Of a stretch of 64,000 bases of DNA, positions 2,765 to 28,998 are shown one piece after another. This stretch comes from a virus. Made by a program: the position numbers and the translations under genes. Each line of letters begins with the position of its first letter. The first letter of the stretch is position 1. The notes under the pieces are model-generated. The model was not told the origin of the DNA, did not search any database, and was given only the letters and a program-made list of their open reading frames with translations. The stretch covers positions 120,745 through 184,744 of the IMG/VR virus record IMGVR_UViG_3300033143_002031; one strand, written 5' to 3'.

Positions 2765-5110
2765 GTGGATGTGACAGTCACAGGGTGGGCGTGGTTGCCC
2801 AAGGCGGACCTGACGCCAGACCAGATCGTGAACATGGAGCGCATGCTCACGGTTCACCCGCAGAAGATCGGGGACTACCCGGGCGACGAGCCCCTGCCGA
2901 TCCACCTGTATGCGAACGAGAGTGACCGCTTCGGCGTCCCCCGCGAGTTCTTTTTCAGCAATCGGCGTGCGACTCACAACATCGACCTCCAGGTCACAGA
3001 AGGATCTAAGGACTGGTGGCCGGCGGAGTTTGTCGGCCTCCTTCGGACGGAGCAGAAGACCGCTCTGAACGAGGTGGTGGCGATGTTCCGGGCCGGGCGG
3101 ATGGGCGGGATCATCCAAGCCAAGCCGGGCTGGGGGAAGTGCCTGGGTATCGGAACTCCCGTGCTCATGTTCGATGGAGCGATAAAGCCTGTCGAGGACA
3201 TTCAAGATGGCGATCTTCTCATGGGGCCGGACAGCCGACCCCGCCGCGTTTTGTCTACGACACGCGGCACCGGACCGCTATACGAGATCGTTCCGTTGCG
3301 TGGAGAGTCCTGGGTGTGCAACGACGCTCACATCTTGACTCTGGTTCACTCCCTGACAGGAGAAGTACAGGATATTGAGGTGGGGGAGTACCTGAAGCTA
3401 TCGAAGACGGAGCGGCATTACCTCAAGCAGTTTGCTCCGGAGCAAGGGGTCGACTTTCTCTCAGCCGAGCCACTTCTGCTGGACCCGTACTTTTTGGGGG
3501 TGTGGTTCGGGGACGGTACGAAGGGTGCGGACGAGGGGGTCTTGAGGAAGGTAGCGGTCACTAAGCGGGACGAAGAGATCAAGAAGCTGTGCGAGGATGT
3601 GGCGTCGAGGTACGGTCTCCATGTCCGCGTGGAAACTTCTGGAGGTACGCGGTGCCCTACCTACCATCTCACAACTGGCAGGACGGGAGGAGGCCGGAAC
3701 GCGCTTCTCGATCTTTTGCGTCGTGTCGTGGGGGACGCATCTGAGGTCCCTCGTCAGTATCTCACCGCGTCCAGGTCGGATCGAAGGGCACTGCTCGCGG
3801 GTTTTTTGGACTCGGACGGCCACCTCAATAACGGTTATTTCGACATCGTGCAGAAGCGGCGCTCTTATGCGGAGGCCGTCATGTTCCTCGCCCGATCTCT
3901 TGGGTTTCGGGCGAGGGTGTCGGAGAAAATTGTACACGGGGAGGTCTACTGGCGCATGGGTCTGTCCGGCGATTTCTCTACACTTCCCCTGCGTGTGTCC
4001 CGAAAGAAGGCCCCTCCCCGGCGACAGAAAAAGGTGCCTACTCGGACAGGGTTCGATGTTCGTTTTGCGGGGACCGGGGCGTATGCGGGGTTTACGTTGG
4101 ACGGGGACGGGCGGTTCCTCCTCGGAGATTTCACCGTGACTCACAACACGGTCGTGGCGCTGGCTATCGCTGCCGAGCTAGGTGTGCCTACCCTCGTCGT
4201 AGTCCACAAGGAATTTCTGATGGACCAGTGGACGGAGCGGATCGAGAAGTTCCTTCCGGCGGCGAAGATAGGTCGCGTCCAGCAAGACACCTGCGACTTC
4301 CGGGGCAAGACTGTGGTCATGGGCATGGTTCACTCCCTTGGAGGAGAGCAGCCCTACCCTGAAGACCTGTGGGAGTGGCCGGGTTTGGTCATCGTGGACG
4401 AGGTGCACCGTATCGGAGCCCGCACGTGGGCTCCTGTTCCTCCGAGGTTCCAAGCCAAGTACCGCCTCGGATTCACGGCGACGCCCCGGCGCAAGGATGG
4501 CGCCGACGACGTGTTCTGGCAGCACATCGGTCCGATTATCTTCGCGGGGAAAGAGGAGCGATTGAAGCCCGTCGTCAAGCGAGTGTGGACCAAGTTCAAA
4601 CTCGTGAAGACGGACCGCTTCAATCCGAATCTGGCCCCGAAGGCGCTCATCACTCGGTTCCTGGTCAAGAGCCGCTACCGCAACGATCTGATCGCGGAGC
4701 AACTCGTCTCAGCCTTGGAGGCGGGGAGGAAGATCCTTGTGCTGAGTGAGCGCTTGCAGCACCTACAGGACATGGAGTCGCAGCTTCGGAATATGTGGCC
4801 AGCGGTGGCCGGAGACGTTTCGATCGGTCAGTACGTCGGAGGTCGAACCAAGGTCCAACTCGAACGGTCGGCGCAGGCTAAGGTCATCTTCGCCACGTCT
4901 CAGTACGCGGCCGAGGGTCTGGACATCCCGGCGCTGGACACGCTGTTCCTGACCACGCCAATGAGCGACGTGGAGCAGGCGGTGGGTCGTATTCAGAGGC
5001 CGCACCCGGACAAGAAAGATCCTATCGTGGTGGACTTCCGCGATGACTCGATTCCTATGTTCGAGGCGATGGGTAGGAAACGAGAGAAGTTCTACACGAG
5101 GATAGCTTGA
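2765..5110 (+). CDS. SF2 DNA helicase (UvsW/ResIII-like), intein-containing
   Basis: Walker A AKPGWGK|T split by the intein, IVDEVH, FTATP, helicase-C motifs (EGLDIPALD, QAVGRIQR); spliced length 445 aa. Confidence 0.92.
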   Translation: MDVTVTGWAWLPKADLTPDQIVNMERMLTVHPQKIGDYPGDEPLPIHLYANESDRFGVPREFFFSNRRATHNIDLQVTEGSKDWWPAEFVGLLRTEQKTALNEVVAMFRAGRMGGIIQAKPGWGKCLGIGTPVLMFDGAIKPVEDIQDGDLLMGPDSRPRRVLSTTRGTGPLYEIVPLRGESWVCNDAHILTLVHSLTGEVQDIEVGEYLKLSKTERHYLKQFAPEQGVDFLSAEPLLLDPYFLGVWFGDGTKGADEGVLRKVAVTKRDEEIKKLCEDVASRYGLHVRVETSGGTRCPTYHLTTGRTGGGRNALLDLLRRVVGDASEVPRQYLTASRSDRRALLAGFLDSDGHLNNGYFDIVQKRRSYAEAVMFLARSLGFRARVSEKIVHGEVYWRMGLSGDFSTLPLRVSRKKAPPRRQKKVPTRTGFDVRFAGTGAYAGFTLDGDGRFLLGDFTVTHNTVVALAIAAELGVPTLVVVHKEFLMDQWTERIEKFLPAAKIGRVQQDTCDFRGKTVVMGMVHSLGGEQPYPEDLWEWPGLVIVDEVHRIGARTWAPVPPRFQAKYRLGFTATPRRKDGADDVFWQHIGPIIFAGKEERLKPVVKRVWTKFKLVKTDRFNPNLAPKALITRFLVKSRYRNDLIAEQLVSALEAGRKILVLSERLQHLQDMESQLRNMWPAVAGDVSIGQYVGGRTKVQLERSAQAKVIFATSQYAAEGLDIPALDTLFLTTPMSDVEQAVGRIQRPHPDKKDPIVVDFRDDSIPMFEAMGRKREKFYTRIA
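3140..4147 (+). mobile_element. intein with in-frame LAGLIDADG homing endonuclease (336 aa)
   Basis: Starts CLGIGTPV right after Walker A GK, ends FTVTHN before Thr; LAGLIDADG-like blocks YFLGVWFGDG and LLAGFLDSDG. Confidence 0.93.
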
Positions 5111-25821: not shown

Positions 25822-28800
25822 ATGATCGAGTACGAGAATGGCCACTGGCGGTCAGTGCGGACGCCGCAGGAGGGGACCGGGCTCCTGGAGAGAGACCTGG
25901 AGACCCTCACCTCCGAGGAGCGCGAGACGATCGGGGTTCTCATGGCCGAGCTAGCGGACCCCGCCGCGTCTGCCGGGCTCCTCCAGACCATCGGCAACCT
26001 GGAGTGGCTACGCACCCCGGTGGACATGCAAACTTTCTGCATGGACCCGTACTACCTCGGGAACACCTGCGACAACCTGTACCCGAGGCTCCTGGAGGAC
26101 ATCACCGCGCTGTTCGAGGAGGGCTATCGGGAGGCGGTCCTCACGGGCGCGATCGGGTGGGGGAAGACCTTCGCTGCGTCCATCGGCATCTGCCGGCTTC
26201 TGTACATCCTGAGTTGCATGCGGGACCCCCACCGTTCTTTCGGAATCGCAGCCAACTCGAACATCTCGATCGTCTGCCTCTCGGTCAACGAGATCCTGGC
26301 CACCAAGGTCGCCTACGAGAACATCGCTACCAAGATCGAGGCGAGCCCCTACTTTCAGGAAAACTTCCCGTTCGAGAAGACAAAGAAGGAACTTCGCTTC
26401 CCACGCAAGGTGTGGGTGGCCGCGCGTGCGAGCAACGACGGCTCGGTCTTGGGGCTAAATGTTATTGGAGGCTTGCTGGATGAATGTGTGCCAGTCGGGT
26501 CGCTGGTGCTGCTCGGGGATGGTAAACAGGCTCGTGTGGAGACGTTGGTCGGTCGGACCGATGTGGTGGTCGAGACGTTCGACTTCGAGCTAGGTCACGC
26601 TGTGCCAGCACAGGCGTTCGTGAAATGGTCGTCGGAGCAGCCGTGTTACGAGTTGGAGTTGGATAACGGTGGAGTGATGCGCGGGTCGGCCGATCACCCT
26701 GTTGCAGTTCGACAGGTTGACGGCACCTTCACTTTCAACGTAATGGGCGCTATCCTGGACGGGCAGGAGGTTGTGGTTCATGCCCCGATGGACGGAGGAG
26801 CGCCGGAAAGCTCATTCGGAGCGGATGAAGGCTCTGTGGGCGGAGGGACGATACAAGGACCGGGAGATGTCACCCGAGGGTCGCGAGAGGCAGGTTTCGG
26901 CGGTGCGGCAGATGCACGCGGAGGGACGGGGCTTTGTTCCGCCTCCGATGGAGGGGACCGACAACCCGATGTATGGGAAGCGGCTCTCCGACTCGCAGAA
27001 AGAGCGCATAGGCGAAGTGAGCAGAGGCAGGCGGTGGTCGGACGAGGACCGCAAGCGCATGTCCGAGCAGCGGACCGGGAAGCCGGTCCACTCACAAGAG
27101 TTCAAGGACGCGCTGGCCGAACGCAACCGGGAGCGCAAGGGCAAGTTCAAGCACACCGAGGAGACCAAACAGAAGATCTCCGAATCGAACATCTGGAAAC
27201 TCCGCAAGGGGGACTTCCGCTACTTGGGTTGGGCGCAGACGACCAAGGCAGGGCGTGTCGGTTTCCGCAGTCTGTACGAATTGAGAGCCATCGAGTTGTT
27301 GGAGGCGGACTCCTCTGTGACGCGGTTCGAGTACGAGAAGCTGGCGGTCTCCTACTCGTTGAACGGGACGACCCGCCGCACGGTGCCGGACTTTCGAGTC
27401 TGGGGCGACAGGGATCGTGTGATCGAGGTCAAGCCCCGGGGCTTCACCTACCATTGGAAGGAGAAGCTCAAGATGGGTGCCGCGCGGCGCTACTGCGAGG
27501 AGCACGGCTTGGAGTACGTAGTCTGGGACGAGAGCTTTCTGTGGCCCGCGTCGTGTCCAAGAGAGACGTGGGAGTGCAGCCTACCTACGACGTTTCGGTC
27601 CCAGGGTACGAGTGCTTCGTCGTAGACGGGGTTCTCGTCCACAACACCAACTTCATGCCCAAGGCGAGCAAGGGGCAGGACCCGAGGTTCAACCTTCAGG
27701 ACCGGGCCGAGGTGCTGTACAACGCCATGCAGCGCCGGATGAAGTCCAGGTTCGAGCGCAAGGGACGGCTGCCCGGCATTCTGTTCGTCGTCTCCTCGAA
27801 GCAGACCAACGATGACTTCACGGCCAAGCGGGTCAAAGAGTCGATTCTCGACCCGACAGTGTTCGTGCGGGATTACGCTCTTTGGGACGTCAAGCCGGAC
27901 ATCTACTACTCTGACGACTGGTTCCATGTGGTGGTGGGGAACGAGCAAGCTCCCAGTCGAATCATCGAGGTCGATGAAGACCTCGATGAGGTGAGGGTGC
28001 TGCTCCCCGAGGACTGCGTTGTGATCGAAGTTCCGGAGGACTTCCGAGTAGACTTCGAGAAAGACTTGGAAGGGGCCATCCGGGACCTTGCGGGCGTGGC
28101 CACCGTCTCCGTGAGCCCCTACATCCAACGCCGTACCAAGATCGTTGAAGCCATCCGTCCGGGCATGAAGCACCCTTTCAGCGTGGAGGTGTACGACCCC
28201 TCGCAGCCGGGGAGGTTCTACTGGCACAAGATGCTGCGGGCTGCTTCGGACGCCGAGGGCGGCAACAGGCCCATCCTGAGCCCCTACGCTCCCCGACACA
28301 TCCACATCGACCCGTCGATGACAGGCGACTCCACAGGCTTCGCCATGGGGCACATCTCAGGCTGGCGTGAGGTCGTCCGGAGGGACGACGAGGGGAACAA
28401 GTACCCCGAGCGTGCTCCGGAGATCACGTTCGACGTGCTCTTGAAGATCGTCCCGCCTATCGGAGGGGAGATCGTCCTCGGCGAGATACGAAAACTCGTC
28501 TACCAGTTGAGCAAGCACGGGTACATGATCACCTGCGTGTCGATCGACTCGTGGAACTCCGCCGACGCGATCCAGAAGTTGAATCAGCGAGGCTTCAACG
28601 CGATCCAGTTGTCGATCGACAGGACGATGGGACCCTACGACCTTCTGAAGACGGGCCTCTACGAGGACCGCATCTACTACTACGAATACGAGCCTCTCCT
28701 TCGGGAGCTACGCGAGGTCGAGCACGACCGCATGAAGCACAAGGTGGACCACCCGCTGCGTGGCTCGAAGGATATTTCAGACGCAGCGGCCGGGGTCATG

Positions 28801-28998
28801 TGGACGCTCACTGAAAACTCCTCCGCACTGCCTCTCCCCATCCTCCGCAGCGTTCCGCAGAACGGGGATGCGTGGATGCAGGAGCACCAGCAAGCGGCGA
28901 TGGCGAGGAGCTACGGGAGCGAGGACACCTCGGATATGTCGGAGAGTACGGCTTTGCCTCCGTTTCTGGTAGGCTCTGGAAGCGATTGGGGCGACTGA
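25822..28998 (+). CDS. terL: terminase large subunit, intein-containing
   Basis: Walker A TGAIGWGKT, Walker B GLLDE followed by the intein, VVSS, nuclease motifs HIDPSMTGD, SIDSWN, KDISDA; spliced length 671 aa. Confidence 0.92.
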   Translation: MIEYENGHWRSVRTPQEGTGLLERDLETLTSEERETIGVLMAELADPAASAGLLQTIGNLEWLRTPVDMQTFCMDPYYLGNTCDNLYPRLLEDITALFEEGYREAVLTGAIGWGKTFAASIGICRLLYILSCMRDPHRSFGIAANSNISIVCLSVNEILATKVAYENIATKIEASPYFQENFPFEKTKKELRFPRKVWVAARASNDGSVLGLNVIGGLLDECVPVGSLVLLGDGKQARVETLVGRTDVVVETFDFELGHAVPAQAFVKWSSEQPCYELELDNGGVMRGSADHPVAVRQVDGTFTFNVMGAILDGQEVVVHAPMDGGAPESSFGADEGSVGGGTIQGPGDVTRGSREAGFGGAADARGGTGLCSASDGGDRQPDVWEAALRLAERAHRRSEQRQAVVGRGPQAHVRAADREAGPLTRVQGRAGRTQPGAQGQVQAHRGDQTEDLRIEHLETPQGGLPLLGLGADDQGRACRFPQSVRIESHRVVGGGLLCDAVRVREAGGLLLVERDDPPHGAGLSSLGRQGSCDRGQAPGLHLPLEGEAQDGCRAALLRGARLGVRSLGRELSVARVVSKRDVGVQPTYDVSVPGYECFVVDGVLVHNTNFMPKASKGQDPRFNLQDRAEVLYNAMQRRMKSRFERKGRLPGILFVVSSKQTNDDFTAKRVKESILDPTVFVRDYALWDVKPDIYYSDDWFHVVVGNEQAPSRIIEVDEDLDEVRVLLPEDCVVIEVPEDFRVDFEKDLEGAIRDLAGVATVSVSPYIQRRTKIVEAIRPGMKHPFSVEVYDPSQPGRFYWHKMLRAASDAEGGNRPILSPYAPRHIHIDPSMTGDSTGFAMGHISGWREVVRRDDEGNKYPERAPEITFDVLLKIVPPIGGEIVLGEIRKLVYQLSKHGYMITCVSIDSWNSADAIQKLNQRGFNAIQLSIDRTMGPYDLLKTGLYEDRIYYYEYEPLLRELREVEHDRMKHKVDHPLRGSKDISDAAAGVMWTLTENSSALPLPILRSVPQNGDAWMQEHQQAAMARSYGSEDTSDMSESTALPPFLVGSGSDWGD
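26485..27645 (+). mobile_element. intein (387 aa) whose endonuclease is encoded in a different reading frame
   Basis: CVPVGSLV start, block B GSADHP, end YDVSV...FVVDGVLVHN then Thr; the central part in this frame has no endonuclease motifs. Confidence 0.92.
26780..27625 (+). CDS. nested +1-frame homing endonuclease: NUMOD3 repeats plus TnsA-like PD-(D/E)XK domain (281 aa)
   Basis: SD AGGAGG 26765-26770, ATG 26780; NPMYGKRLSDSQKERI, HTEETKQKISES; FRSLYE...YEKLAVSY...TVPDF...IEVKP. Confidence 0.88.
   Translation: MPRWTEERRKAHSERMKALWAEGRYKDREMSPEGRERQVSAVRQMHAEGRGFVPPPMEGTDNPMYGKRLSDSQKERIGEVSRGRRWSDEDRKRMSEQRTGKPVHSQEFKDALAERNRERKGKFKHTEETKQKISESNIWKLRKGDFRYLGWAQTTKAGRVGFRSLYELRAIELLEADSSVTRFEYEKLAVSYSLNGTTRRTVPDFRVWGDRDRVIEVKPRGFTYHWKEKLKMGAARRYCEEHGLEYVVWDESFLWPASCPRETWECSLPTTFRSQGTSASS

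Follow-up and report, generated by a model that had tools for sequence, protein, structure and literature searches.

An out-of-frame NUMOD3 and TnsA-like nuclease gene within the intein of a putative phage terminase

Inteins that hold a nuclease gene in another reading frame are the predicted intermediates of an origin in which splicing came first and the endonuclease invaded later, and few families of them have been documented. In actinophages, Gosselin, Arsenault and Gogarten (preprint, bioRxiv 10.1101/2025.01.02.630785) described inteins, many of them in TerL, that carry a frame-3 gene resembling endonuclease VII or else antisense LAGLIDADG- or VSR-like genes, and proposed that inteins are invaded by free-standing endonuclease genes; TnsA and NUMOD are absent from the text of that preprint. 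Phillips et al. (preprint, bioRxiv 10.64898/2026.09.14.751524) reported frame-dependent selection on a +2 LAGLIDADG open reading frame (ORF) in a cyanobacterial dnaX intein, and they credit the first proposal of an out-of-frame intein nuclease to Gorbalenya 1998. Dassa et al. 2009 (PMC2677866) described fractured phage genes, a terminase among them, in which the halves of a split intein flank a free-standing endonuclease gene (GIY-YIG or Vsr-like). The ShiLan case (PMC11855218) is an HNH endonuclease hidden out of frame within a phage methylase; it lacks a splicing domain, and no ribosome-binding site is detectable. Here we describe an intein with an overprinted nuclease gene in a terL-like gene of an environmental phage of ~185 kb (IMG/VR record IMGVR_UViG_3300033143_002031). 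The DNA analysed, called the window below, is the 64,000-nucleotide (nt) stretch at positions 120,745 to 184,744 of that record.

We propose, with a probability of about 0.8, that a class-1-type intein placed after the Walker B Glu of this gene carries in the +1 frame an entire homing endonuclease gene of free-standing type, equipped with a Shine–Dalgarno (SD) sequence and an ATG of its own, and that the locus gives a cis-spliced TerL and a free nuclease that homes. Ribosomes on terL would traverse the nuclease gene in the intein frame and produce a hydrophilic, unstructured linker of ~250 amino acids (aa) that joins the two HINT lobes. The intein would then excise in cis to leave a 671-aa TerL, the same size as that encoded by intein-less alleles. 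Initiation at the internal SD and ATG would yield a free 281-aa protein with NUMOD3 and TnsA-like PD-(D/E)xK domains, which would cut intein-less terL near the Walker B codons in co-infecting phages, and repair would copy intein and nuclease together (homing). An earlier model-made reading of the locus from its letters alone (the sequence-only reading) had left previously published out-of-frame cases to a literature check. That check found the architecture already described, with other nuclease families, and the novelty is therefore lower than that reading had implied. No paper was found in which inteins were linked to TnsA-like nucleases, or NUMOD3 to TnsA.

Two reading frames through one intein

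The terL-like precursor is a single ORF whose junctions read ...VIGGLLDE/CVPVGS...DGVLVHN/TNFMPKAS (a slash marks each junction), and the nuclease ORF lies within its intein in the +1 frame. The features of the locus are:

25822-28998, + strand: terL-like precursor ORF, 1058 aa, with N-extein, intein and C-extein in one frame (ORF reading)
25822-26484, + strand: N-extein, 221 aa; Walker A is GAIGWGKT and Walker B GGLLDE, whose Glu directly precedes the intein (motifs; intein-less alleles)
26485-27645, + strand: intein, 387 aa (1161 nt), from Cys1 to His-Asn, followed by Thr+1
26485-26779, + strand: N-terminal HINT lobe with blocks A and B (block B SADHP), single-coded (AlphaFold2 beta-rich, with a pLDDT (predicted local distance difference test) score of 52-81 per 10-residue block)
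26765-26770, + strand: SD sequence AGGAGG, 9 nt before the nuclease ATG, within intein codons G-Q-E-V
26780-27625, + strand: nuclease gene, 281 aa, +1 frame, putative homing endonuclease of free-standing type (ATG 26780, TAG 27623-27625)
26780-27214, + strand: N-terminal helical region of the nuclease with NUMOD3-type repeats, the presumed DNA-binding part (Pfam NUMOD3; AlphaFold2 helices)
27227-27544, + strand: TnsA-like PD-(D/E)xK catalytic core of the nuclease, ~aa 150-255 (Pfam, invariant columns, AlphaFold2, Foldseek)
26780-27528, + strand: intein-frame filler, ~250 codons, hydrophilic, with no predicted fold and free of stops
27529-27645, + strand: C-terminal HINT lobe, blocks F/G (...LSVARVVSKR...VLVHN), where the intein frame is constrained and the nuclease tail is its off-frame reading
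27646-28998, + strand: C-extein, 450 aa

The intein is inserted precisely and in frame relative to intein-less alleles, which read LLDE/TNFMPKAS at the site. The class 1 intein residues are all present (C1, block B His71 in SADHP, HN387 and T+1) and are invariant across four aligned inteins. A Pfam scan of the middle of the intein frame returned no domain. When AlphaFold2 was run on the intein frame with a shallow four-row alignment (mean pLDDT 39), residues 99-360 were modelled at a pLDDT of ~25-35; this result supports a foldless intein middle and is no validation of an assembled HINT domain. The hydropathy of the filler was below the expectation from synonymous shuffles in four of eight loci (P 0.001-0.025) and not in the window (P 0.80). 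Because the nuclease sequence is rich in Lys, Glu and Arg, the hydrophilic composition of the filler is probably mostly a by-product. All that the sequence-only reading observed is borne out here: the TerL-like ORF is split after Walker B by a 387-aa intein (LLDE/C...HN/T at 26485-27645), the middle of the intein frame lacks a nuclease motif, and the +1 ORF encodes a 281-aa NUMOD3 and TnsA-like nuclease preceded by AGGAGG inside intein codons.

The DNA of nine relatives' contigs was compared (L001-L006; L007-L011). A +1 nuclease offset with an open intein frame is present in L001, L002/L007, L003/L010/L011, L004, L005, L006 and L008/L009. The nucleases of these contigs share 43-71% identity with that of the window, and no fewer than eight independent contigs, metagenomic or viral, show the identical offset. 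In the relatives, the intein frame carries the N-terminal blocks 5′ of the nuclease and blocks F/G plus the C-extein 3′ of it, and it is open throughout the nuclease with a sole stop, in L003; the third frame contains many stops in the same region. The same +1 arrangement is implied for P0013, P0024, P0039, P0054, P0082, P0089, P0102 and P0115. Long open off-frames are unexpected here, because the GC content is only 54-60%.

The absence of stops was assessed by shuffling synonymous codons within each nuclease ORF. The intein frame of the window contains no stop over the nuclease ORF, against 7.4 expected (5.7 in the core; P ≤ 0.0005). For the window and seven related loci, the per-locus shuffles predicted 6-14 intein-frame stops where none was observed (one in L003), with P from <1/2000 to <1/5000. 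By contrast, the stop count of the third frame equals the shuffle expectation. The ~846 nt of dual coding are real and conserved, and selection keeps stops out of the intein frame, as the sequence-only reading had supposed.

Constraint is also specific to the frame. In the nuclease core, pairwise differences amount to 0.42-0.67 at nuclease codon position 3, compared with 0.18-0.51 at positions 1 and 2, and amino acid identity is 0.39-0.73 in the nuclease frame, compared with 0.20-0.46 in the intein frame. The pattern is reversed over the last ~29 nuclease codons, which lie over blocks F/G: there, conservation is higher in the intein frame. The nuclease frame is therefore under amino acid constraint in the core, and the constraint moves to the intein frame over blocks F/G, which agrees with the earlier claim that the nuclease tail is an off-frame reading of the C-terminal splicing blocks. 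Because the L006 nuclease stops short of the overlap with blocks F/G, this tail is best regarded as dispensable read-through.

The window holds another intein, in a ResIII-type helicase at 2765-5110 (+ strand). This intein is of the canonical in-frame kind, as noted previously, with matches to Hom_end_hint, Hom_end and LAGLIDADG_3.

The nuclease and its start signals

Both domains assigned to the +1 ORF exceed their Pfam gathering scores, with 34.2 bits for Tn7_TnsA-like_N (PF08722; gathering score 26.5) and 33.0 bits for NUMOD3 (PF07460; gathering score 20.4). A profile of the nuclease family matched the I-TevI DNA-binding domain (1i3j) with an E value of 0.0024. In the AlphaFold2 model of the nuclease, residues 151-270 have a pLDDT of 81-97 per 10-residue block, and the best structural match is TnsA (1t0f_A; Foldseek E 2.9e-6, root-mean-square deviation 2.7 over 126 columns). 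Five residues, E167/E172, D204, E216 and K218, are invariant in nine nuclease sequences and form an E...D...ExK pattern; by analogy with enzymes of this fold, they would be the catalytic residues. A Tn7-type TnsA transposase subunit was considered and rejected: the NCBIfam TnsA_like score is 32.7 against a cut-off of 110, the N-domain alone aligns, and the context is that of an intein in a packaging gene.

Relatives of the nuclease in the protein collection are 34-71% identical to it, and searches of GenBank phage sequences by blastn and tblastn gave no matches. Free-standing relatives with the same two domains occur in low-GC phage contigs; one is flanked by the tail sheath and tail tube genes and has a closed -1 frame. 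Another free-standing NUMOD3 and TnsA-like gene, at L012:1762-2514, has an N-terminal segment rich in Cys and His.

The start of the nuclease ORF is marked at the same place in every lineage. The motif (G)AGGAGG stands 9 nt before ATG in the window, L001, L005 and L008. In L003 and L010, AAAGGAGG (GGAGG) stands 6 nt before ATG. In L002/L007 the homologous position is occupied by a TTG that GAGG precedes by 9 nt, and in L004 by a TTG with a looser purine-rich run upstream. An SD sequence and a start codon at the same place in all lineages would fit a nuclease that is translated separately. A 5-bp hairpin can also be drawn at 26753-26768 (+ strand), its 3′ arm overlapping the nuclease SD; by sequence reading it is not conserved in L001, and it is therefore probably fortuitous.

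Evidence for mobility of the element, and alternative explanations

Relatives of the TerL-like protein are abundant, and most of them are 668-700 aa in length with LLDE/TNFMPK at the site; the intein-less alleles that read LLDE/TNFMPKAS measure 668-676 aa. The viral contigs L016, L025 and L017 are intein-less, keep an intact LLDE/TNFMPKAS site and are 89-91% identical to the C-extein of the window. On a TerL tree of 121 sequences, built with the intein at the Walker B site excised, the 13 intein-bearing rows require 13 state changes, and several of these rows have an intein-less sister at support of at least 95 (P0115/P0065, P0082/P0067, P0102/P0079, P0039/P0034 and P0077/P0087). Occupied alleles are under-counted, because gene callers often split them. 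On L001-L006, gene callers called the nuclease ORF and resumed terL from an internal codon that lies 30-80 nt ahead of the nuclease stop; since terL is cut at the nuclease ORF in this way, occupied terminases look truncated in protein databases.

Comparison of the window with L005 points to recombination within the element. Blocks F/G are 97% identical in amino acid sequence and the C-extein 91%, compared with 47% for the N-terminal HINT lobe and 43-51% for the nuclease, and at ~27510-27540, the end of the nuclease core, DNA identity jumps from 0.4-0.7 to 0.97-1.00. This sharp breakpoint indicates that the N-terminal HINT lobe and nuclease were exchanged as a module, and that blocks F/G and the C-extein have a different history. 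The same site also holds a decay series, with inteins of 304, 262, 184 and 142 aa. In L015, which has the 262-aa intein, the +1 frame retains its initial 24 residues together with the catalytic core, and ~140 codons including the NUMOD3 repeats are gone, a multiple of three. The sporadic distribution, the module exchange and the free-standing relatives give indirect support to a homing function of the nuclease. A terL homologue on a 48-kb viral contig (L007:3714-9098) is more heavily occupied, and its single ORF of >1794 aa contains at least four inteins: a LAGLIDADG-type intein interrupts the P-loop (GWGK/C), the intein with the out-of-frame nuclease follows Walker B, an HNH-type intein lies at DLEG/C and a fourth starts at HPPGG/C.

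Several observations weigh against the proposal of a cis-splicing intein with a free, homing nuclease in a terminase gene. The first concerns the name of the host gene. ORF 25822-28998 putatively encodes the terminase large subunit, on the basis of synteny with a T4-type portal gene directly downstream, a fitting length and Walker motifs: GWGKT and LLDE align with the Walker A and the Walker B/catalytic Glu of T4 gp17. The hhalign support for this alignment is weak (E 0.14), and no match to a named terminase family was found in PHROGs, NCBIfam, PDB sequences and profiles or the ESM Atlas; on the homologues, Pfam gave PF27249 alone. The argument for dual coding is independent of the terminase name, because the frame is demonstrably selected to stay open. 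Second, the Pfam Intein_splicing match, although it covers both lobes (residues 10-387; 27.4 bits, E 3.4e-6), lies under the gathering score of 35.8. Third, broken forms exist. L003 has a TAA in the intein-frame filler (L003:881-883) where the near-identical viral contigs L010 and L011 read GAA, which reflects an error of assembly or else an allele that was split or inactivated very recently. P0132, a 1045-aa protein from an ENA contig, runs from the TerL N-extein through the N-terminal HINT lobe and ~60 filler codons and then follows the nuclease frame to the nuclease stop; a one-base indel would yield this fusion and leave TerL broken. As L003 and P0132 each show a broken form, in single contigs, not every copy is functional. 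Finally, a 250-aa unstructured insert might slow cis-splicing, and internal initiation within a translated ORF may be inefficient.

Among the alternatives, the one that survives best, although we consider it unlikely, is that the nuclease gene in the source phage is a silent or inactive relic, with the intein inherited vertically and the open frames owed to recent ancestry alone. Decay forms are indeed frequent at the insertion site, and the homing-cycle model predicts such stages. However, the copy in the window has an intact SD, ATG, full length and every invariant residue of the putative catalytic set, the nuclease frame is under purifying selection across all lineages, and the sporadic distribution and module exchange argue for continuing mobility in the clade.

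Programmed ribosomal frameshifting from the terL frame is a considerably poorer candidate. It would produce a fusion of N-extein, N-terminal intein part and nuclease or, if the ribosome then shifted back, a canonical intein whose nuclease domain is internal, and in neither case a free nuclease. Both ORFs lie on one mRNA and on the same strand, and P0132 shows that such a fusion can be encoded. Against this stand the strong SD and start codon, conserved precisely at the ORF start in all lineages. Moreover, a two-shift product would leave the open intein frame unselected over 250 codons, yet selection on it is strong, and sequence reading, which included no formal search, revealed no conserved slippery motif at the junctions. 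The conserved start signals and the selection for an open intein frame together favour independent initiation over frameshifting.

Slightly less credible still is trans assembly of TerL in the manner of a fractured gene whose intein is split, whereby translation of the N-terminal part would end or be abandoned within the filler and the C-terminal part would start internally before block F. Phage metagenomes do contain fractured genes whose intein halves flank a free-standing endonuclease, with a 3′ overlap of 6-69 bp (PMC2677866), the stop in L003 falls in the filler, and gene callers often begin a downstream gene within the nuclease tail. However, the window and seven other lineages have no filler stop, the strong avoidance of stops would be needless in a split arrangement, and the L003 stop reads GAA in the near-identical contigs L010 and L011. 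The fractured-gene class was rejected for this locus accordingly: the host frame is unbroken over 25822-28998, and L003 alone has a stop.

An assembly or sequencing artefact, in which a nuclease that is truly an in-frame intein domain was displaced by two compensating indels, can be dismissed as next to impossible: indels can occur in metagenome assemblies, and the single contigs P0132 and L003 do show frame lesions, but the offset at both junctions is common to at least eight independent assemblies, which come from different samples and whose nucleases are 43-71% identical, and this excludes the in-frame indel that the sequence-only reading had named as its possible undoing, no artefact would yield an intein frame free of stops so far beyond chance, and the longer proteins contained no in-frame nuclease fusion other than P0132, itself a frameshift fusion.

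Comparison with known systems

The clade with the overprinted-nuclease intein consists of uncultured phages of ~110-185 kb with a T4-type portal. Its terL-like family (~670 aa) is common in viral metagenomes, with 683 matches, despite having no PHROG, NCBIfam or PDB sequence match. One insertion site in this clade displays a life cycle, from empty alleles and full elements to internal deletions, a mini-intein and single broken or split-like variants, and the many diverged members permit a clean statistical demonstration of stop-codon avoidance in the host frame. The locus also suggests that a cis-splicing intein, if it splices as predicted, can carry ~250 residues of unstructured filler, which would be useful for intein engineering. 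Taking these observations further, we lean somewhat towards the view that NUMOD3 and TnsA-like proteins are an unrecognised homing endonuclease family, one lineage of which has been overprinted in a cis-splicing terminase intein for long enough to diverge to ~40% identity. The out-of-frame state would then be stable and not a brief intermediate, with the host frame a tolerated, stop-free spacer of 250 aa.

The modules of the nuclease are familiar from other contexts. Its catalytic core folds, in the predicted model, as the N-terminal domain of TnsA, and its N-terminal repeats match both NUMOD3 and the DNA-binding domain of I-TevI. Unlike Tn7 TnsA, it has no TnsA C-terminal domain and no TnsB or TnsC partners, and its context is that of homing, not transposition.

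As in ShiLan, an out-of-frame nuclease of homing type lies within an insert in an essential frame that is free of host-frame stops; unlike in ShiLan, HINT blocks flank the insert, and the internal ribosome-binding site that is lacking there is strong and unambiguous here. The fractured genes of Dassa et al. also have a free-standing-type endonuclease gene at the endonuclease site of an intein, with a nuclease 3′ end that overlaps the downstream intein part, and their Vsr-like enzymes are relatives of the PD-(D/E)xK fold. Those genes consist of two ORFs joined by trans-splicing, whereas the host frame here is open and kept so by selection.

The cyanobacterial dnaX intein resembles the present one in its sense-strand overlapping ORF, in the constraint on the nuclease frame and relaxation of the intein frame, and in its sporadic distribution, mini-intein relatives and proposed origin by secondary invasion of a mini-intein. 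It differs in that it resides in a bacterial chromosomal gene and has a LAGLIDADG nuclease in a +2 ORF, compared with a putative phage terminase, a PD-(D/E)xK nuclease and a +1 ORF here. The actinophage inteins of Gosselin et al. share with the present locus a nuclease in a frame other than that of the intein and exteins, in many cases a terminase location, and a foldless middle of the intein frame. Their sense-strand case is endonuclease VII-like and in frame 3, whereas the nuclease here joins NUMOD3 to a TnsA-like PD-(D/E)xK domain in frame 2 (+1), and their hosts are cultured actinophages, whereas the phages here are uncultured and large, with a T4-type portal and a clear, conserved SD. The architecture of an out-of-frame nuclease is therefore known. 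What the present locus adds is a different class of nuclease among out-of-frame intein nucleases, its frame, the clear SD, a clade of uncultured large phages and unusually strong comparative evidence.

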